This document shows positions 4,116 to 57,764 of a stretch of DNA of 64,000 nucleotides, one piece after another. Location: NCBI GenBank assembly GCA_977862235.1, contig OZ374558.1, forward strand, positions 3,472,001-3,536,000, given 5' to 3'. The number at the start of each line of letters is the position of its first letter. The stretch's first letter is position 1. This DNA is from Dudresnaya verticillata. Its lineage: Eukaryota. The position numbers and the translations under genes are program-made. The notes below the pieces were generated by a model. The model was not told the origin of the DNA and did not search any database. It was given only the letters and a program-made list of their open reading frames with translations.

Positions 4116-7100
4116 CTAGTGACTTTCTAGTTTCTGGAGTAGTGTGATTGCGGCTCGTTGAGCAAAATCCTCGTTCGACTCTTCGCGGTCATTCCGAATA
4201 CCAACAAACGAGCTTAAACGCCCGACCAAGTCAGCAATTTTCGTTGATGGCGATTGACTCTGTCGTTCGTATTCGAAAAACCCTCTCCTCCTGAAAAGAT
4301 CATTATTCTCTCCATGGATAACATCCATCGCCTTCTGACACTCTTCGACCGAGAGTTTGTAGAACAACGGGAAAATCAACGGAGGTTTCTCGCCTCTTCC
4401 AACCGCCTCATCTATCCGTTTGAAGAATTCTTCCAACTCTAGCATAGGCCACTTGCGAGCCAGGAACTCTGGTGACAGTATGAATATTGCAGCTCTGCTC
4501 CCTCGAATTGCAGCCATAATTTGGTCCTTATTCGTCTTTGTGGATACCTCGAGGCTTTTCTCATCTAAGAAACAACTGACCTTTGTGCCCATTGCATTCA
4601 TTACCGGCACGGCGAGGCACCCCTTCTCGCTCCCTGCGTGTCTGATAAATACATCGAAAGGTCTTGCAGCTAGTCGCACGTCAACAGGACAGGGGCCTGA
4701 GCCAGCACTTGCACCTTTGAGGATGTGCGGCTTCAATCGCTTGAAAGTCCAAAGCTGCTCGCAAACGCAAGTACCATCCGCTAGATCCAGTGGCTGGCAC
4801 TGCGTACTTGTTACCCAATTCCGACGGATACTCAACCGCACGCTACTGGAACTTCCACACCCCCCGCGCAATTCCTTAGGGCAGTCGGTGATCAGATAAT
4901 CTTTCCAGCTTACATTGCTCCTATGCAACGGCCCCTTCAAAAAACTTTCCATGCCCCGCAAACACTGGTGCGCAACCTGCAGCGCCTCAGCGGCATCCGC
5001 CCTTATAGTCCAGTCGATCCATCTCTTTTCTGGTATAAAGCGAACCACAACTCTGCATGCTCCCTCAAGGGTCAGGATGACGGCATCTTGACGAAGCTCG
5101 GGCGGTTTTGTCCGCTCTCTTCCAATGGTTCGGTGAAGGTACGCGATCAGTGACCCTGTCAGACTTGGCGGAATGGTATCAACAAACTCTGTTCTTAAAA
5201 TTATTTCACTCTCTCCCTCCTTTGTGTCACACGAGAACCCTTCCCAACCCTTTGGCAGCAGTGAAGGTATCCCGATTAGCTCGTTCTGTTCACCGTCCGC
5301 TCCTTCCACAGCCTGAAGGCGCATGAGGATGTCAAATTGACAAAGAATGTCAAGCATGACTTTTCGGACAGCCGATCGGTATTTACACCACAGTACCTCC
5401 AGTCCTTCACGGGGTATCAACCCATTCCGATAACCGTCTGCTTCATGCTGTCCCAGAGTCTGTAAAGTCCTTTCAAACTCTTTCGCTTCTTCTTCACCCA
5501 GTCTTTCTCGCATAAACTCAGCCGGGCCCGTGACCTGTCGAATAAAGTCCAGAATAACTGTTGGATCTGGGAACACGAACCATCCCTCGCCCGTCTGCAC
5601 TTCTACGATATGGCCCTGCTGACTCTGGAATTGGACGCATTTCTCAACGTCGGCTTCTCTCTCCTCCTTGTCACTAGAGAATCCGGGAAGTCTGGCACCA
5701 TGGCTCTGGACTTCTGTCATTACCAGAAAGACTTTTTGGCTTTCAGTGGCGTGCGACAAAATGGCTTCCCTGAGGGCAGCCCACCGAACTGGAACCTCTT
5801 CCCTTCCGTCAAGAATGTCTTCACTTGCTTCCTTGATAAACTTCTCTAGTTCCACAACGCCTGACCCGGCACGGTCTTGTTCAGCACTGCTGTTCTTGTT
5901 CTCGATGGCAACCCACCGACACTTGCATTTGTTAACATCACCCTTCTCACGTACCCAGTCATCGTAGACAGCCCTTCCGAGATGCTTTCGCAGTTTTTGT
6001 CGCAGCTGCTGAAACAAGTCTTCAGGGCTTTCAACTTCTGCCTTCCTGGTTCCCACCAGGATCACCCAAACATTTTTCGGGGTTTGCGAAGATGCATGTG
6101 CCATTTGCATCCAGTTGCATAGTTCTAACACTTCGTCCTCTTGGGTGACTTCTGACGCAAACCTTTTCAGATCTACCACGAAAACAAAAATGGAAGCGCG
6201 GCGGATGAAGATTGCGGGAACACTGAGGTACTCTGCCTGACCCCCAAGGTCCCAGCATTGCACCAACGCAGCTCGATTATCCACAGGAAATGAGGAACTC
6301 ATGAGCCCTTGCCGTGCTGCTTCCCAAATGGGAGACGCTTGGGAGTTTATAGACTGCGAAGCAGCAATGCTGGGCGGAGCTGGTGGTTGTTGAGCAGTGG
6401 TATGGCTGCTTGCCAATGTGTCTCCACTCTGGGGAACGGTCCTCTCGGTCGGAGGTCCACTCTGGGGAACGGTCCTCTTGGTCGGAGGAGCTCGGTTGGG
6501 CCAAGTGGGGAGTTTAAGGCGGAATCTTGCGGTGGATTTTTCACTCGGCCGCGATGATGCATCAGTTGCCGTGGGCAGCTGGAACAATGTAGCTCTTGAC
6601 ATGAGGGCATGCAAGGCCTCACTGTTGAAGGCGAGCTGGTTGACAATGTCATCGTCCAACTTGGGGCCGCCGGGGACGACAAGAGTGCGACTCAGCGACA
6701 CAAAGTGTGTCGGCTGGTGGGTGGCAACGAAGGGCATGGAGCGCAGGCTCCTTACCGTGCTCGTCTTGCCGCGTGCCGCACCGCCGAGAACAAGAAGAAA
6801 GCACTGCCGTGGCTTTGCTGTGGCGGTCTTGAGGGTGTTTTCAACAAGTGTGCTGGTGTCACCGATATGGTCGAGAAGGTATTGCGACCGGCTGCCGAAG
6901 ACTTTAAGCTCAAGAGGCGTTACCTGTTGATGCGCTGCTTGTTGATGCAGTTGGGCTGCTGTTTGCTCATCGCTAGCAACACCGACATCTCCGCGGCCAA
7001 GCAATGTGGCGAGCTCATAGAGTGCGATGCGGGTGCGATGGAGTTCGATTGAGCGTTGGAAGAGGCTCTTCGCGCGCGGCGGATCGCGCGCGTCTCCGAT

Positions 7101-7806
7101 ATGATTGGACAAAAGCGCTTGGCCCAACCAAACCATATAAATTGGGGCTTCCTCGTGACCGCTGTCGCAGGCGCGTTGGAGCAGTTCGACGCCGCGCGGA
7201 ACGTCTCGCGGAACATCGATTTCGCCGCTCAGCAGCAAATCGCCCAAAACGGCCATTGCGACGACATTTTCGCCCTCCGCGATGGCGCGGTCGAACAGCG
7301 CAGCGGCGCGCGGAGCGTCTTGTTCTTTAATAAAGGTCTCTCTCTCTCTCTTTGGCGACGCCGTCGCCATTTGCGAGGAGATTGCCCAAATTGATCATTG
7401 CGTTCACTTTCGCAAACTCTGCAACGGCTTGTTCGTACAGCGCTGCCGCGCGCTTTGTGTCTTTGACAAAATGGTGCCATCCTTCAGAGAGATTCCATCC
7501 GAGATTGTACAGCGACACCCCGCGCGGATCTCGCGCGTTGGCGCGCTCGACCAGCTCCGCGGCGCGGCGCTCGTCCTTGGGCACTCCCGCGGCACCTTCC
7601 TTCAGCAACAGTGCAAGGCCATGCCGCGCTTCGTCATGGTCGCCCTCATCAATCGCTCGCTCGAGCAAGGCGACGGCTTACAAAGGTAGAACAGGCCCTC
7701 CATCTGAAGCGTCCCAGTACGCAAAGGCGAGTGCAACCATGTCGTCGACGTCGGCATTGTCGTCGATAGCTTGGCGAAGGGCACGGCGCTGCGGTGTGGC
7801 CTCCAT
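4116..7806 (-). pseudogene. Sel1-ROC-COR-TIR gene copy 1 (type A C-terminus), disrupted
   Basis: Motifs: P-loop GGAARGKTS, CWDLGGQ, VPVRW, TIR FDVFIRHAG...WPMLELEE. Lesions: CAA>TAA stop at 7678-7680 in repeat 1 and a 31-bp frameshifting insertion at 7320-7350. ATG homologous to the other copies at 7806. Confidence 0.9.
7320..7350 (+). mobile_element. 31-bp insertion resembling the extreme 3' tail of a (TC)n-tailed non-LTR element
   Basis: ttgttctttaataaaggtctctctctctctc is absent from the paralogous site gcgtctttggc (19490-19500). Flanked by tctt/tctt. ataaaggtc matches the tail at 21647-21674. Confidence 0.7.
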
Positions 7807-8249
7807 GTCGGCAGGAGCGGGCGGTCAAGCGGGTGGAGACGGTTGGAGATGGGATGGTTGGGGTATGTGTCGGGAGCGGGTGCTCCAACCGCACGGCTCT
7901 ATTTATGCAGCGCGGCGCGGTGAAAAGGTAGCCATCCAAACACATCGTGTGGCCTGTCGAAGCTCCACGTTGTAGCACAACGACCGTCTTGTTGTCCCCG
8001 CCGCAGCGCTATTGTTCGGCTTTTGTCCCAACAGGAGAATCACCGAAGGACGGCTCACTTGGCCCTCCACAACGTTCTGATAAAAAAAACGTATGGCCGG
8101 CGCCGTCGCCTTATGCGAGCCCTAAGCGCAAGCTACATTTCGGGCCTGTGGCCGCTGGAGCGCATGAATTTGAGGGCCCCTGCACGTTGTACATGCGCCG
8201 AGAATCGTGCAATTGTGCCTATTATCTATCGGAGTGCATCCAACAGTAA

Positions 8250-8670
8250 GAGAGATGGGGGCCTTTATGGTCGGATTCGAAGGGCACTAACTAGGTCGCC
8301 CCGTCCACTCAAGGACCAAGGACGTACCTGAAGCGCAAGCCGACGGCGATTGATCGCCAGCGCTTGAAAGTGGAGAAGGCGAGAGAGAGAGAGATGCACT
8401 TTATTCAGCGCGATGCAAAAGAATATCGCGATATGGCCCAAGTAGCAATAGGCCACCAACGGAGTATGCTTAGACTTGCGAGCAAGCCCTTTGTATTGCT
8501 TCAGCAATAGCGTAAGCGCGCGATATTTGTGCACCCCGCCGTTCGTAGGGATGCGCGAGGCGTAGTCGCGAAGAAAAGGCGGCGCAAGGAAAGTACGGCC
8601 AAGCGATGGCCCGAGTGAACCATGTACACGCCCCGATGGTCCCGGAACTCGCAACTGCCACAGCCACAAC
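8250..8670 (-). mobile_element. Two abutting 3' fragments of CRE-like non-LTR elements
   Basis: 8250-8380 encodes FQALAINRRRLALQV plus 3' UTR ...cataaaggcccccatctctc, homologous to 21550-21674. 8381-8670 encodes SSGTIG...AIAEAIQRACS (RLE C-terminus-like) and ends aataaagtgca(tc)n. Confidence 0.65.
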
Positions 8671-9399
8671 AGCAACAACAGCACCACCACTTTCGCCATT
8701 GCGAAGGCAGCCACCGCAATGGCGAAAGCAGTCAACCGCTCTTAGAACAAACTCTGGCCCATTGAATGCTTTTTAAAGTGGCGCAAGGGAGAGAGCGCAG
8801 TACGCCTCCCCAAAGCCAATCTCCGGCCTCGCCCTGGATCTGCTGCGCATCCGAGCCCGGCCGTTCCGTCCTCTGAAGCACCCGCATTTCTCGGAGTCCA
8901 GACTCCGCCTCATCGCGTAATCCATCGACCTGGTCTTCCACATTCTTCACCGTTCGCCTCCTGTCGCAGACTTGAAACCAAGAAAATCACGAAAACAATA
9001 GTTCCGCCATCCATGCCGTTTCAGCAGATGCCCAAATGTATACACCGCTTGTTGTACCACGGGCTCTTTACGAGTCTATAGCAACCATAACTGCATTGCC
9101 GGATGGTAGGCGTTTCTAGCGCTTTGCTCAGGAACGGTGACCCACGCACTTTTGCCCAGACCGTGAGAGGCGGCCGATTTATACCCCCATCCTTTTCTTC
9201 GGATAGCCCTGTCGCCTACGATCTCAAGCGTTCAACAAACAGCCTTGTGTTCTGCAGATTAGAAAACGACAGCTCCTGTTTCCTTCCTCTCCCAGCAGCC
9301 CTTCTTCACCTCTTTAGGCGACCTCTAGAAAAGTCATTGAGCTCAAGTTTGATGAGAATTGACGAGGGCGAAATAGAAACCGGGGCTTCAGAGCTACGT

Positions 9400-10655
9400 A
9401 ATAAAAGGATATGTGCCAGCTACTGCTGTACAGGATTTTGGGTTTACTAGAACATCAACCCGGAAGGACGGTTGGTGTGGAACCTCCATGACATGCTGAC
9501 GGCTCTAGAGGTAACCCCAGAGCGGTTGTTGAAGATTGTAGAGTTTCTTTCGAAGCTCCAGAATGAAAAGCGTCTGTTTGCGCTAGTATTTGAAGACCCC
9601 AGCGGGGATGTGATACCGGACGAGATGGTTTCGTACATGCGGGCGGTGTGCGGGATTCCGGATGCATGCAGCTCGAATGACGGTAATCTGCTGGCGCACA
9701 TCCAAGAGAAGTGCGAGTTGCAGGCCACAAACACGCTAGAGTGTTTGGCAGCAGGGTGCGACGGGATGTGGAGCTGCCTGTCCGTGGAGGGTGTGGCGAT
9801 GGGGCACGCGTGCTCGACGATGGTGTTGATGAACTATGTATGGCTGGGGAATAAGAAGGTGCTGTCCAAATACCGGTGCCAGGAGTTTCGGAAGGCAGCG
9901 ATCGAGGTTACGCGGCCGACGACGCTGAAGGACCCGCACCCCAGCAGTGCTCGTACGGAGATCGGGCTCTGGGCCTTGTGTTTGAATCGAGCTCGATGGT
10001 GGGGCCGGGTTCAACATGGCAGAGTTTTTCGGGAAGCGCGAGCGCGAGACGAACCGGACGACGACGCTGGAGTCACCAAACATGGTCATGAACAGGCTCA
10101 AGTACTTGTTTGGTGGCGACGTTCAGTTTACGAAGGCAATGGCGCAGAAGATGCTGGCGCAGATGCTAGTGGACCTGAACGTGGATCGGAAGGAGCGACA
10201 AATGAGGAGGAGTACCAGAGCGCGATGGGACTGGCGGTGTTTTTCGACCTGTGCGGGGGCGGATGACGGGGATGATGAGCGAAGCGATTGCTCGCGTGCA
10301 GGTGCAGGACGCTCTCCACCAGCGGGTGACTGTGGATGCCCGGCAGATGTGGGACTTTTGCGACTCGAAGGAGGCGCGGAATCAGGACGGGGCGCTTGAC
10401 TTTGAGTCATTCTACCACGGGTTTCTCGCGCCGTACTTTGGGTGCTACCCGTGCACGGACACCAAGCAGGCGCTGGCCGAGATAGACATGGACAAGGATG
10501 GGGGTGTGGACTGGGAGGAGTTTCTTGTGTACGTCAAGTGGGCTCTTGCACAATACCTCGAGACGAGCGACGCGGACACGGCGATTGAGATCGGGTTGTA
10601 GAAGGGGTTGGTCTCGGGGATGAGGGACGTTAAGGTGGATAACCCGGAGATACAC
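9400..10655 (+). pseudogene. Frameshifted gene: putative DRE-TIM/HMGL-like region plus C-terminal EF-hands, copy 1
   Basis: EF-hand DMDKDGGVDWEEF and a degenerate NQDGALDFESF; LLAHIQE and EGVAMGHACS motifs. Coding signal jumps between three frames. Confidence 0.6.
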
Positions 10656-10689
10656 ACTGCATTTTACCAAAGTGTCCAGCTCCATTATC

Positions 10690-11580
10690 CCTTAATGCCA
10701 CAACTTGTGATTTCCAATGCATCCCGTAGCGGGTTGGCAACGGATCTCTTTTCCGCCCCTGCGTGGCTGATAAATATATCGTACGGCGTTACTGAGTCAT
10801 GTAGTTCAAAAGCGTAGTCGCCTGATCCCTGAGATACCCACTCAAGAATATGCGGCATCAGTTGTCCATACTTCCGCATTTTCCTTCTGCTTCGTCGAGT
10901 GCCAGGCATTCTTTAATCGAAACCCATTACCGAGGTATTGGCAACAACACACTTTTAGAGCAGCCGCAACCCCCCTGGATGCTCAAAGGACAATCAGTAA
11001 CTATAAAATGATTCCAAGCTGCGCTACTTCCGTGCGGAGGTCTTTTCAAAACATCTTGCATAGCTTTCAGATATTGTTGAGCCACCTTCATCGCTGAGAC
11101 GGCAACAATCGCACCTGATCGTCCACACAATCCATCAAAGTACACAATTATGGTTGAATCCGGGAACACGTACCACCCCATACCACGCTGGTCAGAACCT
11201 CCACTATATGCGCTTTTTGACCCTGAAATTGAACACATTTCTCAACGTCTGCTTCTCTCTCCTCCTTGTCACTAGAGAATCCGACAAATATGGCAGCATG
11301 GTGCTGGATTTCTGCCGTTGTCATAAAGATTTTTTTGTTTTCTGTAGCCTGTGGACAAAATATCTTCCCTGAGGGCAGCCCACCGAACGAGAACCCCTTC
11401 CCTTCCGTCAACAATTTCGTCACTCGGATTGTCTTCTCCAGTTCCGCAACGCCTCTAACCCAGCACGGTCTCGTTCAGCACTGCTGTTCTCGACAATAAC
11501 CAATCGAAACTTGTTCTTATCGACATCACCCCGGGACCCTTTCACAAACCCAATCATCGTAAAAACCCCGAGATGCTTTT
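10690..11580 (-). pseudogene. Decayed, internally deleted type B ROC-COR-TIR fragment
   Basis: SVTPYDIFISHAGAEK, GFSSDKEEREADVEKCVQFQGQ and ENSSAERDRAG are homologous to copy 2, with deletions and frameshifts. Confidence 0.85.
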
Positions 11581-12389
11581 GCTCTCGGAGAAACGATGAG
11601 GAACGAGCTACAACTTTGCGCATGGCAATTAGAATCGAGGTGACGTGCGACACTTTATGTCCGCCATTGCATGCGGCCACAACTACAATTCTGTGAATTG
11701 ACTCTCCCTTCTGCCTTGAAGATGTAATACCGGTTCTTCTGCGTTGTACTGCTTCTCCCGAGTTGGCTCGCGGACCTGTTCGTTCTTCAGCACAGATGCC
11801 TTTTTTACTAGAGCTCCCAACTTCGGCTCTATTTATGCTCTCAACTCGCTGGTGCTCTTCCAATCTACGTCGCTGTCTCAAATGCAACGGTCCCTCTAAA
11901 TGCAAATAGTAAATGCTAGCTCGACGGTAAAGCGTCGTATATCTCATCTGTCGTCCGCCATGTCATGAGTAAATTCATTTCCAGCTCGACCACCTTGTCC
12001 AACATCCATAGCTGTGTTGCTTAGCCAACATCAATTCACGATTCATCCTACTTTCTAACAAAGAGCACAATTACAATAATTCATAGCATTAGTACCGTAC
12101 TGTAGCATTTGTAGCTAGTGCTGGCATTCGTGATGTATTAATCCAATGGCTTGGCTTACGTAGCTATCAATTCACTGAGTTACAAAAAACATGAACAACG
12201 GGCTCTAGGACAATGGCTGCAAGCAATAACATTGTAAATTATTGTTGCACCAATACTCTCCCCTTCGGTATAACCGCCATCATGCCCCAGTAACATCTGC
12301 AGAATATGCCTACGTCGTGCAATAAGTTTGCAATAGACTTAAATAGTGCGAAGGAAGCATGGGGATCCATGTTAACGTTTGTGTAATGC

Positions 12390-12610
12390 GATGTCAAACC
12401 TGTTCATTCATTTTGAGGAATATTATAGCTTCAAAAACTTGGTGGTCATCGCCTTGCGATTGTCGGTTAGCACGTGCTCCGCAATGCTCCTGAGCCGGTC
12501 AACCTCGGCAACGGATCCAATAATAAAGTTGCAGTTGATAAAAGGATCTAGTTTCCAGGGTACCTTTCGCTTCTTGGCTAAATGCTGAATGATCGATGAC
12601 TTGCAAATTA
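12390..12610 (-). mobile_element. hAT-family transposase C-terminal dimerisation domain remnant
   Basis: Minus-strand translation IIGSVAEVDRLRSIAEHVLTDNRKAMTTK / FEAIIFLKMNEQV (one frameshift) fits the hAT pattern SxxxxERxFS...R..M....E...FLK.N. Embedded in AT-rich DNA. Confidence 0.65.
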
Positions 12611-13149
12611 TAAGTCATGGTGCATCATCGACGACGATGATACTGTTGGCGAGAAAGCAGACCTGGCAACTTGTTAGTGATAAAGTAGCAATGATTTGGT
12701 ACTATGTAATTTACAGCATGGGGCTAGAAAACGCTATATTCTCGGGATCAACTCTAGAGATACCGCTCCCCCGCAAACCCGAACATATGGTTATATATAC
12801 TGCTTTTAGCAACAGGGCTTCTAATATTACCACTTAACCCAATAGGTATTACAATATACATTGTCACTGCAATAAGAATTGCAATTTGCTATAATATCAG
12901 CAACTCAATATGCCATTGCTATTGTATATTGCAATATATTGCTACTGCTATTAATTGCACGACAGCCCTGGTCACCAGCCCTGACGCGACGCTTCTGCAA
13001 CTTTCTGCGCTTCTTTTCCTCTTCTTCCCCTCTTTTTGCCCTTCTTTTCTGTCCTTTCTGTCCGTTTTCTGCAACCCATCCGACGTTATTAACCTTTTAT
13101 CCTGTCCTGTAAGACAGCCATGGCAGGGATCAAACAGATACCTACCTTT

Positions 13150-14290
13150 TTGTCACCCTGTCATGTGCTCATTATGACGGCGCCAGAAAACTATTACACC
13201 GGCACTTTAATCACTCAACCCTGTTCGTATTCGAAGCAACTGTGAACAATGTCGTGGCAGAGCTGTGCGACTCTCATGCATGCGATTTTAGACAAGTCTC
13301 CGAAGGGAGGTCCGTCGAACATCGTCGGTATATCTGCCCGGTCTAACAACATCTCGAACACAAATTGGAATTGGCTTCGGTGCTGAAATGGACCGCGACC
13401 AGAGAATAGCTTTATCATCATGTCTAGACTCCTTCGTGAAGGAAACCATGGGCGAATATATTATGTACCCATTGCGCCGATACTCCTGAAAGTTTGGAGA
13501 GAGGAAACACGTGCTTGAGAACGAACAAAGTGTTCAAAATATTTGTCAACACTTGTTCACATACTTTATCCGGACACTTGTTCACATACTTTATCCGGAC
13601 AAGACTGGCGGAGACGAAACAAGAAACAGAGCCTCACTCTTCAGATCTCTTGTACTCGATCATAGTCATCAGCAAGGGAGACATGACGTTGGACACCTCC
13701 CTGGTCGTCGAATTTGCTCTCTCCAGATACGTTTCAACTGACCAGGTCTTATCCTAGGCTGTTTACGAGACTTGCAGAAACTCTAATGTTGAATACTTGA
13801 CAGGGACTGAAGTTTCTACCCGCTTTAGGGACCAGCTGTTTAACCGCCCTTTATCTAGACGGAACGTTTGAGAGCCTCCGTACCTGAACAGGGTATGTAA
13901 CTGCAACAATCAAGCAGTCCGCAAGACCGGTAATATTACGCAATGGCGGAACCAAGATCCCAGAGGGGGCATTGGTGATGAGTCTTCAAACCTGGGCAAA
14001 CCTGGACCCCAAAATATGGCGCGATCCGTTGGGATTTGGTCCGGAACGGTGGGTCTACAGAACTTCTCGTAGAGAGGGTGACAAAGTCTGGCCTGGAACT
14101 TATGTTCCGTTTGGTAGTAGGTCTCGTGCTTGCGCCGGTAGGTTTCTTGCCAAGCACGACTAAGCTCTAATCCCCGCCGAATTGCATCGCAGTTTTATTT
14201 TCATGCTAGCTTCCGAGAAGAGCGAAGGAGTGGGAGTGAAGGCTTTTGTCGAGGTTGCAAAATCACCCTCTGTGAAGGGAGGGGGATTAA
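13150..14290 (+). pseudogene. Cytochrome P450 pseudogene, copy 1
   Basis: DPKIWRDPLGFGPERW (PERF-like) and PFGSRSRACAGRFLA (heme-Cys motif). In-frame stops and frameshifts. Confidence 0.8.
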
Positions 14291-16239
14291 AAAACGCTAA
14301 ACAAGCGCGTTGGACTTCTGCCAGAACACAATACAGGAAACGCTATTTCTTTACGGCGTTAGAATACATGTGAATATTTGCCATGTCGTTTCTGTGCTTG
14401 TTTCAGGATGGGGAGTACTGATGAGAGCTCCTCACCTCTGGAGAGACAAGTGCCACTTCCGTGAGCACAATAACTACCTCTTCTAATAATCGACCAGAAG
14501 GAACGTTTTCTGTTTGTCCGAACTCACAAGTAGATTACACACACGTTGTCTCCGAGAGGACCTGCGATAGATAAACTGTGGTTTAGTTTCTCGAAAGGAG
14601 GGGAACGCACAACGTACCTTGTGGGCGTAGAAAAGATGTATAAGACAAGAGCCCAACTTTTATGCTGTATACTAAGTGTTGTGAATCGCAACTACTATTT
14701 TTGATAATCACAACTCGTATCAAATGAATCGCAACTACTATTTTTGTTAACCACAACCCGTATCAATAGAACAGAATGTCATTTCGAGGAACGAAGAGGA
14801 CCATGTAGGAGGAGACGGAAGCAGCGAGAGCTCCCAGGGTGAACGGTTACGTCTGCCACCCGTCGGAACGTTCCAGCAAATTCATGAGCTCCGTTGCGGT
14901 TTGGTACATAGCCGCACACAGCCGCCACCCACACTGATACACCCACTCACCGATCCATGCGTGCCGCCACTCGTCCCTTCGAGCTGCTAACAGCATATAT
15001 GACGGGATTTTGCGTCTCAGGAGACGAGAAACTGTCTAAACATCTCACGTGGAAGTATCTTTCAAACTCACTGGGACGAGGTCGTCGCCCTCGAAGCGAA
15101 TTATGTGTTCCAGACCGTACGCATCGGCAGTCTGGAGACCAAAAGCATTAAAGAAAGTGTGGCGAATGCGATGGCCATTGCCCGTCTCGCGCATGCGAGC
15201 GACCATGGTCTCACCACCGGCCTGTCCAAACAGTTTATAGGCTCTGCCTTGCTGTTCACACTTGTTCGCCCTGGAAGCTGAAGTGAGGGCCGTCAAAGCC
15301 AAAAATGTCTGGATTCTTCGAGGCGAAAGCCATGAAGAAGGCCCGGATGCCGATGCTCTTAAAGTCGCATTCGTAGTGGAGCACGGCGTCAATTTGCAAG
15401 GGGACAATCTGCGTACTGATTCAGCAGGAGAAGCCACACGGGTGACAGCCAGCGCAGGGGTCCGTGAGGCATCGCGCTTTCGGCTGGTCGCGGCACGCGT
15501 TTTCCGCGGCGCGGCGTTCGGTGAAAGTTGCCAGCCGGGTGAAGGCACGCTGTGAAGTGCTCCAGCAGCTACTAGTGTGTCGGGTGCGGGCGGTCCCCCC
15601 ACAGCAAATATACTGGGACAAGGAGGGAAAAGAAACAAACGATAGGGGGTGCCGTCCATCTTCCGTGTGGCGGTGGTCGTGGGTGCTGGTTGATGTAAAA
15701 AGGTGAGTGCGAAGCGTGGTCGGTTGAAAGTGGTACATACGGGCTGCAGCAAGGACGAGATTCGTGTTCCGTTTTGCTGTTTGTCGACGGGGAGATCTTT
15801 TCGGAAGGCAGTACGGCCATTAACAATAATGGTTTAACGCGGAAACAATAACAAGAGCGTTTTGTAAGCATGTTCAAGCCATCTTCTGACTCCGCCTGGG
15901 ATCTATGTATAGCCTGCACTTTGGTACAATCTCAAATGTTCAACAACCAGCTTTTTAAACATAGACAGGACACCGAACTGAGCTTCGATGTCAATAGACA
16001 AGGACGAAATAGAAATCAGACACACTACCGGTAGTAAAGCAAGCAACAACCTGGCAGTAATGGCACACACCCGCGACATTTCCACGGCCTTGTTCTTCCA
16101 CGGTCGCCATATTCTGTTTCTCTGTACAGAAAGCGCATACCTAATCACACTCGACTCGTTCTACCGGCCAGATCTTGATCGCACAGGATTTTAATAGTCT
16201 TAACTCGCAAACTCGCGAGGTACAAGATGTTTATTACTA

Positions 16240-19200
16240 TTAACTTGCAAACTCGCGAGAGAACTTTTTTGCTGCTCTTGTTGCAAACTGAGTATCGGTC
16301 TCTCCACGGACATCGTTCCGAACACCGATATATCCTGTCACTTTCGCAAGTGTCTCCATTACCTCCGTCACTGGAACCTTCTTCTGGCGTTCGTGGTCGA
16401 AAAAGTGATTATCTTCAAATACACGCCGAAACCGTTCGTCATACGGAAGCTGCTTGTTCTTGCAGTCTTCCACCTGCAGTTGGTAGAAAAGCGGGAACAG
16501 TACAGGTGACTGTGGTCTCTGCTTTCGCTCGAGAAATTCAGACAGCTCTACCATCGGCCACTTGCGAGCCACAAACGACGGCGAAAGAATGAAAGCGGCA
16601 GCCTTACTGCCGCGAATTGCCGCTCGAATTTGCTCTTCGTTTGTACGTTCCGAAACCTTCAAACTCTCTTCATCCAAAAAACACCGCAATCCCATTGCTT
16701 TCAATGCATTCCGTAGCGGGTAGGCAACAGATATCTTTTCCGGGCCTGCGTGGCTAATAAAGACATCATACGGAGTTACTGAGTCTTGTAGTTCAAAATG
16801 ATCGTGGCTTGATCCGTCAGACACACCCTCAAGAATATGTAACTTCAGTTCTCCATAGTTCCACAGTTGATTGCAATAGCATTTTCCTTCTGCCTCATCG
16901 AGTGCCTGACATTCTTCAGTCGAAACCCATGTCTGAGGTATTGACAACAACACACTTTTAGAGCCACCGCAACCCCCCTGGATGCTCGAAGGGCAATCAG
17001 TAACTAGAAAATGATTCCGAGCTGCGTTGCTTCCGTGCGGAGGTCTTGTCAAAAAATCTTCCATAGCTTTCAAACATTCTTGAGCCACCTTCATTGCTGA
17101 GACGGCATCGCACCTGCTCGTCCACACAATCCATCTTTTCTTAGGAACGAAGCAAACAACAACGCGGCAAGTCCCCTTCAGAGAAAGAATTACAGCATCT
17201 TGGCGAAGTTCCGGTGGCTTTGTTCGCTCTCCTCCGATAGTGCGATGAAGGAATGCAACAAAGTAGCCCTCCAAGCCAGGGGGAATGGCATCGTCAAAGA
17301 TGGTTCTCAAAACAATTTCGCACTCTCCTTCTTTCGTAGGGCACTGGAATCCCTCCCAACCTTTGGGAAGCAACGACGGAATCCCGACTAGCTCCTTCCG
17401 CTCATCACCCTCCGTCTCTGTAGAGTGCAAACGCATTAGAATGCCAAACCGGCACAGAATGTCAAGCATCACATCTCGAACAGGAGGTAGGTATTTACAC
17501 CACAATTCATCCAGTCCCTTTCGTGGGATCAACCCGTTCTCGTAACTTTCTGCTTCATGCTGTCCTAGAGTTTGCAAACTCCTTTCAAACTCTTTCGCTT
17601 CTTCTTCACCCAGTCTTTCTCGCATAAACTCAGCCGGGCCCGTGACCTGTCGAATAAAGTCCAGAATAACTGTTGGATCTGGGAACACGTACCATCCCTC
17701 GGCCGTCTGAACTTCGGCGATATGCCCTTGTTGGCCCTGGAATTGGACGCATTTCTCAACGTCTGCTTCTCTCTCCTCCTTGTCACTAGAGAATCCGGGA
17801 AGTCTGGCAGCATGGCTATGGACTTCTCCCATTGCCAAAAAGACTTCTTGGCTTTCAGTGGCGTGCGACAAAATGGCTTCCCTGAGGGCAGCCCACCGAA
17901 CTGGAACCTCTTCCCTTCCGTCAAGAATGTCTTCACTCGCTTCCTTGATAAACTTCTCTAGTTCCACAACGCCTGACCCGGCACGGTCTTGTTCAGCACT
18001 GCTGTTCTTGTTCTCGATGGCAACCCACCGACACTTGCATTTGTCGACATCACCCTTCTCCCGTACCCAGTCATCGTAGACAGCCCTTCCGAGATGCTTT
18101 CGCAGTTTTTGTCGCAGCTGCTGAAACAAGTCTTCAGGGCTTTCAACTTCTGCCTTCCTGGTTCCCACCAGGATCACCCAAACGTTTTTCGGGGTTTGCG
18201 AAGACGCATGTGCCATTTGCATCCAGTTGCATAGTTCTAACACTTCGTCCTCTAACACTTCGTCCTCTTGGGTGACTTCTGACGCAAACCTTTTCAGATC
18301 TACCACGAAAACAAAAATGGAAGCGCGGCGGATGAAGATTGCGGGAACACTGAGGTACTCTGCCTGACCCCCAAGGTCCCAGCATTGCACCAACGCAGCT
18401 CGATTATCCGCAGGGAATGGATGACTCATGAGCCCTTGCCGTGCTGCTTCCCAAATGGGAGACGCTCGGGAGTTGATAGACTGTGAAGCAGCAATACTGG
18501 GCGGAGCTGGTGGTTGTTGAGCAGTGGTATGGCTGCTTGCCAATGTGTCTCCACTCTGGGGAACGGTCCTCTTGGTCGGAGGAGCTCGCTTGAGCCAAGT
18601 GGGGAGTTTAAGGTGGAACCTTGCGGTGGATTTTTCACTCGGCCGCGATGATGCATCAGTTGCAGTTGGGAGAAACGCCGATCCAGCTCGAAAGGAGCCG
18701 GCATCGGATGCACTTGCTGTAGATGACGTTGGTCGTTCCGTTGGCGTGGGTAACACTGGAATACCTGACCGTGACATGAGGGCATGGAAGGCCTCGCTGT
18801 TGAAAGCGAGTTGGTCGACAATGTCATCGTCCAACTTGGGGCCGTCCGGGACGACAACAGTGCGACTCAGCGACACAAAGTGTGTCGGCTGGTGGGTGGC
18901 AACGAAGGGCATGGAGCGCAGGCTCCTTACCGTGCTTGTCTTGCCGCGTGCCGCACCGCCAAGAACAAGAAGAAAGCACTGCCGTGGCTTTGCTGTGGCG
19001 GTCTTGAGGGTGTTGTCAACAAGTGTGCTGGTGTCACCGATGCGGTTGACAAGGTATTGCAACCGGCTGCTGAAGACTTCAAGCTCAAGAGGCGTTTGCT
19101 GTTGATGCGCTGCTTGTTGATGCAGTTGGGCTGCTGCGCGCTCATCGCGAGCAACACCGACATCTCCGCGGCCAAGCAATGTGGCGAGCTCATAGAGTGC

Positions 19201-44303: not shown

Positions 44304-44936
44304 GTTCGAGGGGGAATGTTGGCACAATGATGTTCAATGTGACACGAACTTATCACGGTCAACATGCACCACAACAATGCAGTTTACCTGACAATGACAG
44401 AAGTGCAGAAACTCTCCGGCCCTGCTCTTCAGGAGACTCCCCCGGAATTATCACCCGGAGAGGACTCTCCTGCCGTGCAAGCAAAGGTTCGAAAATGTAG
44501 TAGTAGGACTTTGCTTACCGTATAAAGACCAGCCATAAACAGGGAGTAGCCCAGACTGGTTGGCACATCAACACACAAATCTAACAGTCCTTGGGCACTC
44601 CCGCGGCCCCTTCCTTTAGCAACAGTGCAAGGCCATGCCGCGCTTCGTCATGGTCGCCCTCATCAATCGCTCGCTCGAGCAAGGCGACGGCTCGCGAAGG
44701 CAGAACGGGCCCTCCATCTGAAGCGTCCCAGTACGCAAATGCGAGTGCAACCATGTCGTCGCCGTCGGCATTGTCGTCGATAGCTTGGCGAAGGGCAAGG
44801 CGCTGCGGTGTGGCATCCATGTCGGCAGGAGCGGGCGGTCGAGCGGGTGGAGGCGGTTGGAGATGGGATGGTTGGGGTGTGTGTGTCGGGAGCGAGTGCG
44901 CCAAGCGCACGGCGCTATTTATGCCGCGATGAAAGT

Positions 44937-45206
44937 TGTTGGCACAATGATGTTCAATGTGACACGAACTTATCACGGTCAACATGCACCACAACAATGC
45001 AGTTTACCTGACAATGACAGAAGTGCAGAAACTCTCCGGCCCTGCTCTTCAGGAGACTCCCCCGGAATTATCACCCGGAGAGGACTCTCCTGCCGTGCAA
45101 GCAAAGGTTCGAAAATGTAGTAGTAGGACTTTGCTTACCGTATAAAGACCAGCCATAAACAGGGAGTAGCCCAGACTGGTTGGCACATCAACACACAAAT
45201 CTAACA
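44937..45206 (+). mobile_element. Solo LTR of the same Copia family
   Basis: 270 bp, matching the 3' LTR at the one variable site. Has its own TSD AAAGT (44932-44936 / 45207-45211). Empty sites at about 20065 and 57876. Confidence 0.97.
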
Positions 45207-45327
45207 AAAGTTGCGAGTGGGACGGCGGGAGGTGCTGCAGCGCGGCGTGGGCGGCGGTGTGCCGCGCGGCGGAGCTGTTTGGAGCGGATGTTGTAAAAGT
45301 CGAAAGGCGCGTTGTCACGTCAGAGCA

Positions 45328-46341: not shown

Positions 46342-47240
46342 CTAGGTAGTCATACGTTGCAATAGCCTCAAGCTGCCCTTTTTCTGACATGTACTGACGT
46401 TGTTGATAGACTTCCCATTTTTCTTTAAGGTAGGTTTCGTAACCGTCTGCAGCGCTTCCAATATTATCAAAAGTTGCGTGGAGAGAGTTCTTCCATTTAC
46501 CGGAATACAGAATAGGCCTGAAACCGTATCTACTACCACGTTGCTGTTCTTGAGTTTATGTCTCATTGTGTATTCAATACCATAGATACGAGAATTGCCC
46601 GTGACCTGAAATGCCATTGCGTGGTAAGAAGACTCCGTGCTCCACTCATCTGTACGGTCCCCAACGGTTCTGCCTTTAATCGTATCGCTCGGAAGATGGG
46701 CTGTATCACCGTTCCAAATGTACGGAAAGTCCAGCTCAATGTCGAGGTACGATTCATGCACTATGAGCATGTTGATGGTAGCTATTGCTCCCAATATGAA
46801 AATAACAGCCACCGGATGCTTCAGTAGAGACTTTGTCAGTTTCTTAACAGCTTTTTTAAAGCCCTTGCCGACGGCTTTTCTAGAAACTGATGCTGCAGTC
46901 TCAACGCTGTCCCCCGCTATCATACGTTTCGTGAATGTCGACATCAACTTAAATCCAGCCCGTACGCATGTATTTGTCAACTCCCATACTTCTTTGGACA
47001 CATTTCCGTCCAATTCCTTGAACGCTTTAGAGAAAGCATACCAAACGCCTTGGCGATATTAGCACCCTGTTCGGCAAGAACAGATTTTCCCAGCACAAAT
47101 ACACCAAGCCTGAACAACGCATCTGGAATTCCAACGGAAACCATATACGACAGAGGTATGTTGAAAACGACCGTATCACTAATGCCATTGGTTTCGATAT
47201 ACGTTAATTCAGGTTCTATATCATCAAAGGCTTGTGTGAT
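46342..47240 (-). pseudogene. Unidentified, probably frameshifted gene fragment, single copy in this window
   Basis: A 223-aa stretch of natural-looking composition with a hydrophobic segment PVAVIFILGAIATINMLIV. No recognised motif and no ATG at the ORF start. Confidence 0.35.
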
Positions 47241-48175: not shown

Positions 48176-48247
48176 TCAGGTAGGTCCTTGTGTTGACGGG
48201 GCGACTTAGCGCCCTTCGAACCCTACCATAAAGTTCCCCCATCTCTC
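48176..48247 (+). mobile_element. 72-bp 3' tail of the CRE-like element
   Basis: tcaggtaggtccttgtgttgacggggcgacttagcgcccttcgaaccctaccataaagttcccccatctctc matches 21595-21665. Confidence 0.85.
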
Positions 48248-48580
48248 TTGTCACTAGAGAATCCAACAAGTTGACAGCATGGTGCTGGATTTCTGCCGTT
48301 GTCAGAAAGACGTTTTTGTTTTCTGTAGCCTGTGGACAAAATATCTTCCCTGAGGGCAGCCCACCGAACGAGAACTCCTTCCCTTCCGTCAACAATTTCG
48401 TCACTCGGATTGTCTTCTCCAGTTCCGCAACGCCTCTAACCCAGCACGGTCTCGTTCAGCACTGCTGTTCTCGACAATAACCAATCGAAACTTGTTCTTA
48501 TCGACATCACCCCGGGACCCTTTCACAAACCCAATCATCGTAAAAACCCCGAGATGCTTTTGCTCTCGGAGAAACGATGA
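48248..48580 (-). pseudogene. Decayed ROC-COR fragment
   Basis: Paralogue of 11267-11580. Confidence 0.8.
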
Positions 48581-49384
48581 GGAACGAGCTACAACTTTGC
48601 GCATGGCAATTAGAATCGAGGTGACGTGCGACACTTTATGTCCGCCATTGCATGCGGCCACAACTACAATTCTGTGAATTGACTCTCCCTTCTGCCGTGA
48701 AGATGCAATACCGGTTCTTCTGCGTTGTACTGCTTCTCGCGAGTTGGCTCGCGGACCTGTTCGTTCTTCAGTACAGATGCCTTGTTTACTAGAGCTCCCA
48801 ACTTCGGCTCTATTTATGCTCTCAACTCGGTGGTGCTCTTCCAATCTACATCGTTGTCTCAAATGCAACAGTCCCTCTAAATGCAAATAGTAAATGCTAG
48901 CTCGACGGTAAAGCGTCGTATATCTCATCTGTCGTCCGCCATGTCATGAGTAAATTCATTTCCAGCTCGACCACCTTGTCCAACATCCATAGCTGTGTTG
49001 CTTAGCCAACATCAATTCACGATTCATCTTACTTTCTAACAAAGAGCACGATTACAATAATTCATAGCATTAGAACCGTACTGTAGCATTTGTAGCTAAT
49101 GCTGGCATTCGTGATGTATTACTCCAATGGCTTGCCTTACGTAGCTATCAATTCACCAAGTTACAAAACAACATAAACACCGGGCTCTAGGACAATGGCT
49201 ACAAGCAATAACATTGCAAATTATTGTAGCACCAATACTCTCCCCTTCGGCAATCTATATTGCTATATAGCCGCCATCATGCCCCAGTAACATCTGCAGA
49301 ATATGCCTACGTCGTGCAATAAGTTTGCAATAGACTTAAATAGTGCGAAGGAAACATGGGGATCCATGTTAACGTTTGTGTAAT

Positions 49385-52316: not shown

Positions 52317-52331
52317 AGCGAGAGAGAGACC
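52317..52331 (-). mobile_element. 15-bp (TC)n-tail micro-insertion with 11-bp target duplication
   Basis: tttctctacgg-[agcgagagagagacc]-tttctctacgg; empty site tttctttacgg at 14346. Reverse complement reads (aaa)ggtctctctctc. Confidence 0.65.
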
Positions 52332-54080: not shown

Positions 54081-57000
54081 CTATGAACTTGCAAACTCGC
54101 GAGAGAACTTTTTTGCTGCTCTTGTTGCAAACTGAGTATCGGTCTCTCCACGGACATCGTTCCGAACACCGATATATCCTGTCACTTTCGCAAGTGTCTC
54201 CATTACCTCCGTCACTGGAACCTTCTTCTGCCGTTCGTGGTCGAAAAAGTGATTATCTTCAAATACACGCCGAAACCGTTCGTCATACGGAAGCTGCTTG
54301 TTCTTGCAGTCTTCCACCTGCAGTTGGTAGAAAAGCGGGAACAGTACAGGTGACTGTGGTCTCTGCTTTCGCTCGAGAAATTCAGACAGCTCTACCATCG
54401 GCCACTTGCGAGCCACAAACGACGGCGAAAGAATGAAAGCGGCAGCCTTACTGCCGCGAATTGCCGCTCGAATTTGCTCTTCGTTTGTACGTTCCGAAAC
54501 CTTCAAACTCTCTTCATCCAAAAAACACCGCAATCCCATTGCTTTCAATGCATTCCGTAGCGGGTAGGCAACAGATATCTTTTCCGGGCCTGCGTGGCTA
54601 ATAAAGACATCATACGGAGTTACTGAGTCTTGTAGTTCAAAATGATCGTGGCTTGATCCGTCAGACACACCCTCAAGAATATGTAACTTCAGTTCTCCAT
54701 AGTTCCACAGTTGATTGCAATAGCATTTTTCTTCTGCCTCATCGAGTGCCTGACATTCTTCAGTCGCAACCCATGTCTGAGGTATTGACAACAACACACT
54801 TTTAGAGCCACCGCAACCCCCCTGGATGCTCGAAGGAGAAGGACAATCGGTAACTAGAAAATGATTCCGAGCTGCGCTGCTTTCGTGCGGAGGTCTTGTC
54901 AAAAAATCGTCCATAGCTTTCAAACATTCTTGAGCCACCTTCATTGCTGAGACGGCATTGCACCTGATCGTCCACACAATCCATCTTTTCTTAGGAACGA
55001 AGCAAACAACAACGCGGCAAGTCCCCTTCAGAGAAAGAATTACAGCATCTTGGCGAAGTTCCGGTGGCTTTGTTCGCTCTCCTCCGATAGTGCGATGAAG
55101 GAATGCAACAAAGTAGCCCTCCAAGCCAGGGGGAATGGCATCGTCAAAGATGGTTCTCAAAACAATTTCGCACTCTCCTTCTTTCGTAGGGCACTGGAAT
55201 CCCTCCCAACCTTTGGGAAGCAACGACGGAATCCCGACTAGCTCCTTCCGCTCATCACCCTCCGTCTCTGTAGAGTGCAAACGCATTAGAATCCCAAACT
55301 GGCACAGAATGTCAAGCATCACATCTCGAACAGGAGGTAGGTATTTACACCACAATTCATCCAGTCCCTTTCGCGGGATCAACCCGTTCTCGTAACTTTC
55401 TGCTTCATGCTGTCGCAGCGTCTGTATCTTCTTTTCAAACTCTTTCGCTTCTTCTTCACCCAGTCGTTCTCGCATAAATGCCGCCGGCCCCGTGACCTGC
55501 CGAATAAAGTCCAGAATTGTGCTCGGATCTGGGAACACATACCATCCCTCGCCCGTCTGCACTTCTACGATATGGCCCTGCTGACTCTGAAATTGGACGC
55601 ATTTCTCAACGTCGGCTTCTCTCTCCTCCTTGTCACCAGAGAATCCGGGAAGTCTGGCAGCATGGCTCTGAACTTCTGTCATTACCAGAAAGACTTTTTG
55701 GCTTTCAGTGGCGTGTGACCAAATGGCTTCCCTGAGGGCAGCCCATCGAACTGGAACTCGTTCCCTTCCGTCAACAATTTCATCACTCGCTTCCTTGATT
55801 CTCTTCTCTAGTTCCACAACGCCTGACCCGGCACGGTCTTGTTCAGCACTGCTGTTCTTGTTCTCGATGGCAACCCACCGACACTTGCATTTGTCGACAT
55901 CGCCCTTCTCACGTACCCAGTCATCGTAGACAGCCCTTCCGAGATGCTTTCGCAGTTTTTGTCGCAGCTGCTGAAACAAGTCTTCAGGGCTTTCAACTTC
56001 TGCCTTCCTGGTTCCCACCAGGATCACCCAAACGTTTTTCGGGGTTTGCGAAGACGCATGTGCCATTTGCATCCAGTCGCATAGTTCTAACACTTCGTCC
56101 TCTTGGGTGACTTCTGACGCAAACCTTTTCAGATCTACCACGAAAACAAAAATGGAAGCGCGGCGGATGAAGATTGCGGGAACACTGAGGTACTCTGCCT
56201 GACCCCCAAGGTCCCAGCATTGCACCAACGCAGCTCGATTACCCGCAGGGAATGGGTGACTCATGAGCCCTTGCCGTGCTGCTTCCCAAATGGGAGACCC
56301 TTGGGAGTTTATAGACTGCGAAGCAGCAATACTGGGCGGAGCTGGTGGTTGTTGAGCAGTGGTATGGCTGCTTGCCAATGTGTCTCCACTCTGGGGAACG
56401 GTCCTCTTGGTCGGAGGAGCTCGCTTGAGCGAAGTGGGGGGTTTAAGGTGCAATCTTGCGGTGGATTTTTCACTCGGCCGCGATGATGCATCAGTTGCAG
56501 TTGGGAGAAACGCCGATCCAGCTCGAAAGGAGCCGGCATCGGATGCACTTGCTGTAGATGACGTTGGTCGTTCCGTTGGCGTGGGTACCTCTTGAATATC
56601 GGACCGTGAAATGAGGGCATGGAAGGCCTCGCTATTGAAGGCGAGCTGGTCGACAATGTCATCGTCCAACTTGGGGCCGTCCGGGACGACAAGAGTGCGA
56701 CTCAGCGACACAAACTGTGTCGGCTGGTGGGTGGCAACGAAGGGCATGGAGCGCAGGCTCCTTACCGTGCTTGTCTTGCCGCGTGCCGCACCGCCGAGAA
56801 CAAGAAGAAAGCACTGCCGTGGCTTTGCTATGGCGGTCTTGAGGGTGTTTTCAACAAGTGTGCTAGTGTCACCGATGCGGTTAAGAAGGTATTGCCAGTG
56901 GCTGCTGGCGAATCTAAGCTCAAGACGCGTTAGCTGTTGATACGCTGCTTGTTGATGCAGTTGGGCTGCTGTTTGCTCATCGCGAGCAACACCGACATCT

Positions 57001-57764
57001 CCGCGGCCACGCAATGTGACGAGCTCATAGAGTGCGATGCGGGTGCGATGGAGTTGGATTGAGCGTTGGAAGAGCGGATCGCGCGCGTGTCTGATATGAT
57101 TGCAAAAACTCGCGTGGCCCAACCAAACCATCCAAATTGGGGCCCACTCGTGATTGCAGGCGCGTTGGAGCAGTTCGACGCCGCGCGGATCGTCTCGCGG
57201 AACATCGGTTTCGCCTCTCAGCAGCAAAAGGCCCAAATTGGCCATTGCGAAGACATTTTCGCCCTCCGCGATGGCGCGGTCGTACAGCGCAGCAGCACGC
57301 GGAGCGTCTTTGGCGACGCCGTCGCCTTTTACGAGGAGAGCGCCCAAATTGCCCATTGCGGTCACATCCGCAAACTCTGCAACGGCTCGTTCGTACAGCG
57401 CTGCCGCGCGCTTTGTGTCTTTGACAAAATGGCGCCATCCGATATGGAGACGCAGTCCGAGCTTGAACAGCGACGCCCCGCGCGGATCTCGCGCGTTGGC
57501 GCGCTCGACCAGCTCCGCGGCGCGGCGCTCGTCCTTGGGCACTCCCGCGGCCCCTTCCTTTAGCAACAGTGCAAGGCCATGCCGCGCTTTGTCATGGTCG
57601 CCCTCACCAATCGCTCGCTCGAGCAAGGCGACGGCTTGCAAAGGTAGAACAGGCCCTCCATCTGAAGCGTCCCAGTACGCAAATGCGAGTGCAACCATGT
57701 CGTCGCCGTCGGCATTGTCGTCGATAGCTTGGCGAAGGGCAAGGCGCTGCGGTGTGGCATCCAT
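54081..57764 (-). CDS. Sel1-ROC-COR-TIR protein copy 5 (type B), intact, 1227 aa
   Basis: Open ORF from ATG 57764 with the same motifs as copy 2. Short in-frame deletions in Sel1 repeats 5-6. Confidence 0.92.
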   Translation of the reverse strand: MDATPQRLALRQAIDDNADGDDMVALAFAYWDASDGGPVLPLQAVALLERAIGEGDHDKARHGLALLLKEGAAGVPKDERRAAELVERANARDPRGASLFKLGLRLHIGWRHFVKDTKRAAALYERAVAEFADVTAMGNLGALLVKGDGVAKDAPRAAALYDRAIAEGENVFAMANLGLLLLRGETDVPRDDPRGVELLQRACNHEWAPIWMVWLGHASFCNHIRHARDPLFQRSIQLHRTRIALYELVTLRGRGDVGVARDEQTAAQLHQQAAYQQLTRLELRFASSHWQYLLNRIGDTSTLVENTLKTAIAKPRQCFLLVLGGAARGKTSTVRSLRSMPFVATHQPTQFVSLSRTLVVPDGPKLDDDIVDQLAFNSEAFHALISRSDIQEVPTPTERPTSSTASASDAGSFRAGSAFLPTATDASSRPSEKSTARLHLKPPTSLKRAPPTKRTVPQSGDTLASSHTTAQQPPAPPSIAASQSINSQGSPIWEAARQGLMSHPFPAGNRAALVQCWDLGGQAEYLSVPAIFIRRASIFVFVVDLKRFASEVTQEDEVLELCDWMQMAHASSQTPKNVWVILVGTRKAEVESPEDLFQQLRQKLRKHLGRAVYDDWVREKGDVDKCKCRWVAIENKNSSAEQDRAGSGVVELEKRIKEASDEIVDGRERVPVRWAALREAIWSHATESQKVFLVMTEVQSHAARLPGFSGDKEEREADVEKCVQFQSQQGHIVEVQTGEGWYVFPDPSTILDFIRQVTGPAAFMRERLGEEEAKEFEKKIQTLRQHEAESYENGLIPRKGLDELWCKYLPPVRDVMLDILCQFGILMRLHSTETEGDERKELVGIPSLLPKGWEGFQCPTKEGECEIVLRTIFDDAIPPGLEGYFVAFLHRTIGGERTKPPELRQDAVILSLKGTCRVVVCFVPKKRWIVWTIRCNAVSAMKVAQECLKAMDDFLTRPPHESSAARNHFLVTDCPSPSSIQGGCGGSKSVLLSIPQTWVATEECQALDEAEEKCYCNQLWNYGELKLHILEGVSDGSSHDHFELQDSVTPYDVFISHAGPEKISVAYPLRNALKAMGLRCFLDEESLKVSERTNEEQIRAAIRGSKAAAFILSPSFVARKWPMVELSEFLERKQRPQSPVLFPLFYQLQVEDCKNKQLPYDERFRRVFEDNHFFDHERQKKVPVTEVMETLAKVTGYIGVRNDVRGETDTQFATRAAKKFSREFASS

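Follow-up and report, generated by a model that had tools for sequence, protein, structure and literature searches.

A 64,000-nucleotide (nt) stretch of contig OZ374558.1 from Dudresnaya verticillata (positions 3,472,001 to 3,536,000; the window is this whole stretch, and coordinates below count from its first letter) carries a tandem array of genes encoding seven Sel1 repeats, a ROC GTPase domain, COR, a cluster of four cysteines, and TIR. Change among the copies is diversifying on one face of the Sel1 repeats, and selection on ROC and COR-A is purifying. We regard the array as probably a birth-and-death family of NLR-like intracellular immune receptors that are switched by a GTPase and have a TIR NAD+ hydrolase (NADase) as output; evidence of this kind, read from sequence, for a Sel1 sensor engaged in an arms race is apparently new.

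Organization of the array

Searches with tblastn and self-alignment of the window revealed five minus-strand copies with this architecture, here C1 to C5, and three decayed fragments, all within 54 kb. The copies fall into two types, A and B. Only C2 (16240–19953; type A), an open frame of 1237 residues, and C5 (54081–57764; type A), an open frame of 1227 residues, are unbroken. C1 (4116–7806; type B) is stopped by a TAA at codon 43, and its Sel1 region carries a 31-nt insertion near 7322–7352. C3 (24074–27057; type B) is frameshifted, with a 1-nt deletion near 26340, and truncated at its 5' end, where it lies next to a non-LTR (long terminal repeat) retroelement and lacks approximately the first 240 codons, corresponding to five of the seven repeats. 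The coding region of C4 (type A) is interrupted by a copia element, which separates a 3' piece running from codon 77 to the stop (36281–39762) from a 5' piece with codons 1–78 (44587–44820). The decayed fragments, also on the minus strand, lie at 10712–11683 (late ROC, parts of COR, and the start of TIR), 31510–31932 (the end of COR-B and the start of TIR), and 48241–48664 (late ROC and the start of COR-A), the latter two duplicating parts of the first. The preliminary description of this DNA, made from its letters alone, had counted five near-complete copies, two of them intact, and three fragments; the counts stand, while C3, being 5'-truncated, is not near-complete.

C2 and C5 each form one open frame that is collinear with homologues and has all its indels in frame, which fits the earlier suggestion that the genes are intronless. 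A TATA-like box approximately 100 nt upstream of the ATG is common to C1, C2, C4, and C5, supporting the chosen start codon. In the self-comparison, copies and fragments sit inside blocks that were co-duplicated with decayed neighboring genes.

Two copies show local peculiarities. The insertion in C1 contains an (AG)n run and a plus-strand AATAAA, and is possibly the footprint of a mobile element. In C5, repeats 6–7 (56900–57150) have in-frame deletions of two and five residues around repeat 6 together with several radical changes near that repeat, and the frame remains open; these changes may reflect a reshaped sensor or a copy that is beginning to decay.

Diversifying change on the Sel1 repeats

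In C2, the Sel1 array occupies 19099–19899 on the minus strand (residues 19–285). Sel1 is matched above the curated Pfam cut-off in C2 and C5 (PF08238, 88 bits versus a cut-off of 30.7), and the array matches solved Sel1 proteins at E 3e-17. Pfam resolves only two to three single repeats; the count of seven repeats, which match PF08238, have 36–38 residues each, and align on a Leu-Gly/Ala anchor, comes from alignment and from a repeat hidden Markov model that was self-built and hence circular. Within C2, the repeats are 40–63% identical in DNA.

Selection was assessed on C1, C2, C4, and C5 pooled, over Sel1 residues 19–285, counting each change once and along paths that minimize nonsynonymous steps. 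The Sel1 array has 88 nonsynonymous and 14 synonymous changes (ratio 2.1, P=0.004), versus 39 and 42 in the ROC core and COR-A (Fisher P=5e-8 for the difference). Half of the scored Sel1 nonsynonymous changes (41 of 82) fall on positions equivalent to TPR positions 2, 5, 9, 12, and 13, which comprise 35 of the 236 codons (permutation P=1e-5). In TPRs, these positions are variable, concave, and ligand-contacting (PMC1261162). Positions 33 and 34 of that set were not counted, since the greater length of Sel1 repeats puts them out of register there. The position test was not blind, the pattern having been noticed before the published positions were known. In C2, hypervariable codons include 100, 104, 107, 136, 143, 147, 173, and 180, in helix A of repeats 3–6. 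We assume from the repeat consensus, rather than from a model of the Sel1 region, that the five positions map to the concave face.

The signal resides in repeats 3–7 and not in repeats 1–2. The unbroken pair C2/C5 by itself gives 48 nonsynonymous and seven synonymous changes (ratio 2.3, P=0.018), and at the five ligand-face positions of this pair the proportion of nonsynonymous differences (pN) is 0.26 versus a synonymous proportion (pS) of 0.047. Over residues 86–235, pS is 0.02–0.04 versus a pN of 0.08–0.13 in all six pairs of copies. A site model fitted to Sel1 gave a likelihood ratio test (LRT) statistic of 93.5 and placed 14% of sites at a ratio near 29. The array thus has, by functional analogy to NLRs, a repeat sensor under diversifying selection, with the caveats of recombination and few copies.

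Recombination among the copies

Types A (C2, C4, and C5) and B (C1 and C3) are 93–98% identical in ROC, 87–90% in COR-A, 60% in COR-B, and 46% in TIR, the switch lying near residues 800–825. Among all relatives, the two types group as sisters both in COR-B (support 96/76) and in TIR (85). They are therefore old duplicates in which the Sel1-ROC-COR-A part was homogenized by recombination, with COR-B and TIR staying distinct, and we rejected the idea that the type B TIR was swapped in from another family. C4 is a recombinant: it shows one difference from C2 over 14250–19250 (5 kb) and then 27 in 480 nt, in Sel1 repeats 3–6, and its 5' piece (codons 1–78) is nearer to C5 than to C2. Mosaic blocks also occur in COR-A. 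The clustering, birth-and-death, and mosaicism proposed at the outset fit a tandem array in which only two of five copies are unbroken, the recombinant C4, and the blocks in COR-A.

This same recombination raises the question of whether the selection signal could be largely an artefact of gene-conversion tracts from unseen paralogues, or of concatenated haplotypes, that import old Sel1 variation. The abrupt rise in differences between C4 and C2 and the COR-A mosaic are what such import would produce. Imported tracts would, however, bring synonymous changes too, and pS stays low relative to pN over residues 86–235 in the six pairs; moreover, the mosaic COR-A blocks are dominated by synonymous changes (27 versus 24), and the copies have different flanking sequences and different insertions, the latter with target duplications. 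We consider an artefact improbable.

A template-driven diversifier was considered separately and is not supported, as self-comparison of the window turned up no stand-alone copy of the variable region, and the nearby reverse transcriptases belong to copia and non-LTR elements.

The ROC-COR switch

The ROC domain of C2 lies at 17929–18987 (minus strand; residues 323–675), and Roc is matched above the Pfam cut-off in C2 and C5 (31–33 bits versus 27). As in ROCO proteins, the domain keeps G1 (GGAARGKTS, with K338), the switch I threonine of G2 (Thr357), and G3 (DLGGQ, conforming to DxxGQ). At G4 the sequence is GTRKA, with Ala601 of C2 at the position where Roco proteins usually have the Asp that confers guanine specificity. 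Because G4–G5 vary among Roco proteins (PMC6337361), alanine at this position does not exclude ROCO membership. After switch I, ROC carries a disordered insert of approximately 100 residues (predicted local distance difference test score, pLDDT, below 50 at C2 residues 402–494). We rejected an intron as an explanation for this insert and take it to be coding because C1 has in-frame indels there and homologues carry inserts at the same place.

COR-A and COR-B of C2 occupy 16834–17928 on the minus strand (about residues 676–1040), ending in the four-Cys cluster. By Pfam, COR-A is weak in the window proteins (E 0.01–0.16), and it is matched directly by the close homologues P0006 and P0009 (E 1e-7 and 7e-7). 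A family profile matches the ROC-COR tandem at E 5e-20, with the proviso that six Roco proteins of greater distance were part of its alignment and may bias the search. A single-sequence fold was unusable (pLDDT 38). A family-based model of C2 residues 302–1237 from a 71-row alignment reached a pLDDT of 80.9 and a predicted template modelling score (pTM) of 0.75. Its best Foldseek match is the RocCOR structure 3DPU of the Chlorobium Roco protein CtRoco (E 4.9e-14, TM(target) 0.67); it also matches the isolated COR 3DPT (E 1e-8), 6HLU, and the ROC-COR of LRRK1/2, with VIA Z scores of 19–22 versus LRRK1, LRRK2, and CtRoco over model residues of about 10–740. The Atlas model of a Chondrus homologue agrees on COR. 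As the family-based model and the profile predict it, COR directly follows ROC, as in ROCO proteins. The four cysteines at the end of COR-B (C987, C995, C1025, and C1027 of C2), conserved in 29–33 of 32–34 family rows, would form a zinc site. The domains named from the letters alone have thus been confirmed by profile and structure prediction: Sel1, ROC, and TIR exceed Pfam cut-offs in C2 and C5, COR is borne out by homologues, family profile, and predicted fold, the Cys cluster is near-invariant, and the NTPase is, as proposed, a ROC G domain by both profile and fold in place of NB-ARC or NACHT.

The TIR domain

TIR_2 is matched above the curated Pfam cut-off in C2 and C5. In C2, the domain occupies 16243–16782 on the minus strand (residues 1058–1237), and its Glu1136, in helix C, aligns with the Glu of the NADase AbTIR (E 9e-11); the Glu is present in all 43 aligned rows. 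The TIR fold of the C2 model has VIA Z scores of 18–19 versus plant TIRs. With this fold and a Glu at the catalytic position in helix C, the domain is predicted to be an NAD+ hydrolase. In other TIRs, clustering yields NAD+ cleavage. In the TIR of C1, a motif reads IRH in place of ISH.

The invariant Glu also bears on the possibility that the proteins serve non-immune ROCO signaling in stress or development, with TIR as a scaffold and the array reflecting no more than a repeat-rich, unstable region. Responses to non-immune stress are common among brown-algal ROCOs (PMC11378527), and the window is indeed rich in retroelements and in decayed genes duplicated with the array. Passive duplication would nonetheless lead to a ratio of nonsynonymous to synonymous rates of at most 1 and not to an in-register excess on five helix positions, a scaffold sits poorly with an invariant catalytic-position Glu, and three of the five copies are already broken; we regard this explanation as unlikely.

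A working model for receptor function

In the immune-receptor model that we favor, the Sel1 repeats would bind a foreign ligand, as the selection on them suggests; binding would shift the nucleotide and dimer state of ROC-COR, and the shifted state would switch on the TIR NAD+ hydrolase. CtRoco undergoes a nucleotide-dependent monomer–dimer cycle (PMC6337361), and by analogy the repeats may be coupled via switch II to such a cycle of COR-B. The active form could be a dimer or higher cluster; alternatively, the dimer might keep the TIRs apart, and nucleotide binding would free them for self-assembly. As for other TIRs, clustering would give NAD+ cleavage followed by a signal or cell death. Types A and B would let a shared pool of sensors feed two output modules, each consisting of COR-B and TIR. 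The sensor–switch–effector design originally suggested for these genes gains support from the change on the Sel1 ligand face, the purifying selection on ROC and COR-A, the alignment of the TIR Glu with AbTIR, and the occurrence of related TIRs on NB-ARC proteins. More tentatively, and with odds somewhat below even, we suggest that red seaweeds have a second, GTPase-based class of NLR equivalents beside the NB-ARC ones, in which a Sel1 solenoid, in an arms race with pathogen ligands, would drive a ROC-COR switch that has lost guanine specificity and directly gates a TIR NADase, and sensors would be recombined onto two outputs. Such receptors would be the first ROCO proteins shown to be ligand-activated immune receptors.

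Several observations weigh against the immune-receptor model. The ROC control in the site-model test also gave an LRT of 12.8, on two sites, and the test is therefore too liberal here; three of the six pairwise tests over the whole Sel1 array were not significant (P 0.15–0.19). All selection tests rest on only four copies, two of them broken, that recombine with one another; site tests are inflated by recombination and also by codon changes of more than one base. Two Chondrus Sel1-ROC-TIR versions, P0007 and P0153, differ at five of 1272 residues, none of them in scored repeats, and the near-identical pair P0014/P0154 likewise has no differences there, so that the hypervariability is not reproduced elsewhere. 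At G4, Asp is found in only seven rows of a close set of 30, a set that includes four window copies and several near-duplicates and from which six distant Roco rows and two misaligned rows were set aside; five of the six distant rows have it. With Ala in the window, specificity for GTP cannot be taken for granted. Dimerization through COR would join only two TIRs, and plant TIR resistosomes are tetrameric according to their PDB titles. Finally, selection on a binding face does not mean that the ligand is pathogen-derived.

This last point leads to the main rival, an allorecognition receptor with the same biochemistry whose ligand would be conspecific or from a related alga and which would act at cell fusion, coalescence, or mating; it is the main rival because it predicts the same signature. 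Diversifying selection on the repeat face is equally expected of it, and in fungi allorecognition is governed by NLRs of the NB-ARC-TPR and NACHT-WD40 kinds (PMC13449251). Two findings speak against it: the modest DNA identity of the C2 repeats (40–63%) is unlike the high internal conservation of repeats in fungal het NLRs, and the 127 window open reading frames (ORFs) scanned include no linked partner gene for the ROCO copies. On balance, we judge allorecognition unlikely and retain the immune-receptor model.

The array would also offer candidate loci for disease resistance in seaweeds. ROCO immune receptors have been proposed in brown algae and bacteria, and we found no functional test in the literature searched. 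The array provides a tractable case, with two unbroken paralogues that share the same TIR, have different predicted binding faces, and have a predicted enzymatic output open to measurement; with it, the control of an effector by repeats and by the nucleotide cycle of ROC-COR could be studied, a matter still debated for LRRK2-type proteins.

Relatives and comparable systems

Word-indexed searches returned one or two relatives apiece; the family emerged from an exhaustive search, which yielded 56 proteins at E ≤1e-30. All named relatives are from Chondrus crispus (two of ten clusters looked up, plus P0004). In the ROC-COR-A tree, the window copies fall into a 24-row clade (support 100/99) together with all three Chondrus proteins, CDF33057.1 ("Sel1-repeat containing protein"), CDF40092.1, and CDF39398.1 ("TIR domain-containing protein GTPase"), and CDF40092.1 is collinear with the window protein at 32% identity over 936 residues. 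Domain order and nesting with these proteins place the window genes in a Chondrus-type Sel1/TPR-ROC-COR-TIR clade. Judged from these homologues, a florideophyte red alga is the likely host. P0007, the near-identical partner of CDF33057.1, has Sel1, Roc, and TIR; the 34 scanned relatives further include two Sel1-Roc-TIR, one Ank-Roc-COR-TIR, one TIR-Roc-TIR, and two Sel1-TIR proteins, and in others a related TIR is paired with NB-ARC (nine) or NACHT (one). The architecture search that had been recommended thus found the same layout in relatives, and the architecture is not new. Sel1 repeat numbers across the family range from about four to 15 or more, P0003 having about 15 or more. We do not claim an exchange of TIRs between ROCO and NB-ARC proteins: a Chondrus ROCO TIR falls among NB-ARC TIRs with a support by the Shimodaira–Hasegawa-like approximate likelihood ratio test of 95 in a 131-row quick tree and of only 86 in a 41-row quick tree built after removal of every unlabelled row and of 15 ids that were distant, long-branch, or duplicate. 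Among metagenome contigs, none of 62 pattern matches was confirmed, and plasmids gave matches to TIR only.

In two relatives the G motifs are eroded, P0011 having no DxxG and P0019 no P-loop in the alignment, which suggests pseudo-GTPase members. P0014 and P0154 have near-identical adjacent Sel1 repeats, and end in a C-terminal domain other than TIR, for which Pfam gives no match at E 0.001.

A "TPR-ROCO-TIR (Chondrus crispus)" architecture has already been listed (PMC11378527), and a ROC-COR switch with NLR-like function was proposed earlier (PMC8195603); with CDF33057.1 in GenBank as well, the novelty suggested in the preliminary description was overstated. Both the Chondrus TPR-ROCO-TIR and the window copies have the four Cys and the TIR Glu. 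Five ROCOs are reported genome-wide in Chondrus, compared with five copies and fragments in 54 kb here, and the available part of the listing (PMC11378527) does not describe diversifying selection, A and B types, or the G4 change. We found no functional test or selection analysis of red-algal Sel1-ROCO-TIR genes in the literature searched; earlier descriptions of the family may exist in Zambounis 2012 or in the genome papers on Chondrus and Porphyra. In Asparagopsis, Sel1 proteins have been counted among potential pathogen receptors (PMC12115072).

The proteins with a repeat domain, ROC-COR, and an effector have already been proposed as NLR analogues in bacteria and in brown algae. The candidate LRR (leucine-rich repeat)-ROC-COR receptors of brown algae share with the window genes a ROC-COR switch, an expanded family with many pseudogenes, and selected concave-face sites, positive selection having been reported on the concave LRR face; they differ in having LRRs, each repeat on an exon of its own, with shuffled exons and alternative splicing, as opposed to Sel1 repeats in single open frames, and mostly lack a C-terminal effector where the window genes carry TIR (PMC11378527). 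With a single open frame and repeats of limited DNA identity, the window genes show neither brown-algal exon shuffling nor the high internal conservation of fungal repeats. The NLR-like bacterial LRR-AP-GTPase-COR-effector proteins, whose 24 or more effectors include TIR, resemble the window genes in their fast-evolving N-terminal repeats, ROC-COR core, C-terminal effector, sensor–switch–effector order, and several paralogues per genome, and differ in being prokaryotic, in having an LRR sensor, and in being predicted only (PMC8195603). In Aplysia, LRR-ROC-COR-TIR proteins likewise combine ROCO and TIR in one chain and have been proposed to act in GTPase-linked immune signaling, but they are animal proteins with LRR or death domains and no Sel1 (PMC9334734).

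Plant TIR-NLRs (RPP1 and Roq1) and STAND NLRs in general offer a functional resemblance, with a variable repeat sensor, an NTPase switch, a TIR with catalytic Glu whose fold matches the window TIR (Z 18–19), and clustered birth-and-death evolution. Unlike plant TIR-NLRs, the window proteins have a Ras-like G domain with COR as switch and a reversed domain order with TIR last, and a self-built NB-ARC profile had no match among them. The likeness to an NLR is at most one of function; the window protein does not belong to that family.

Neighboring elements and decayed genes

An open frame of 238 residues on the minus strand (46342–47058) lies in a single-copy stretch and has no Pfam or NCBIfam match. 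A decayed gene at 8746–10598 (plus strand) ends in EF hands by Pfam, has no Pfam or NCBIfam match in its middle part, and stands tail to tail with ROCO fragments; it was co-duplicated with them, repeats lying at about 29550–31400 and 60441–62542. A cytochrome P450 fragment (13888–14160, plus strand; E 7e-12) lies within a duplicated block (11265–14286). At the window edge, a minus-strand gene (3–1508) has a signal-peptide-like start followed by Cys-rich Ephrin_rec_like repeats and runs past the edge.

The non-LTR retroelement that abuts the truncated 5' end of C3 (27054–29193, plus strand) has a reverse transcriptase and an (AG)n end, and remnants of non-LTR retroelements lie at 8217–8384 and 20920–21665. 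The copia-type LTR retrotransposon inside C4 (39763–44586, plus strand) has gag and pol in different frames and is young; its 270-nt LTRs differ at one base, and it is flanked by a 5-nt target duplication, GTCCT. A solo LTR of the same element (44937–45206, plus strand), identical to its 3' LTR, lies 350 nt away, just upstream of the TATA-like box of C4, and has the target duplication AAAGT. Because each has its own 5-nt duplication, the two represent separate insertions into C4.

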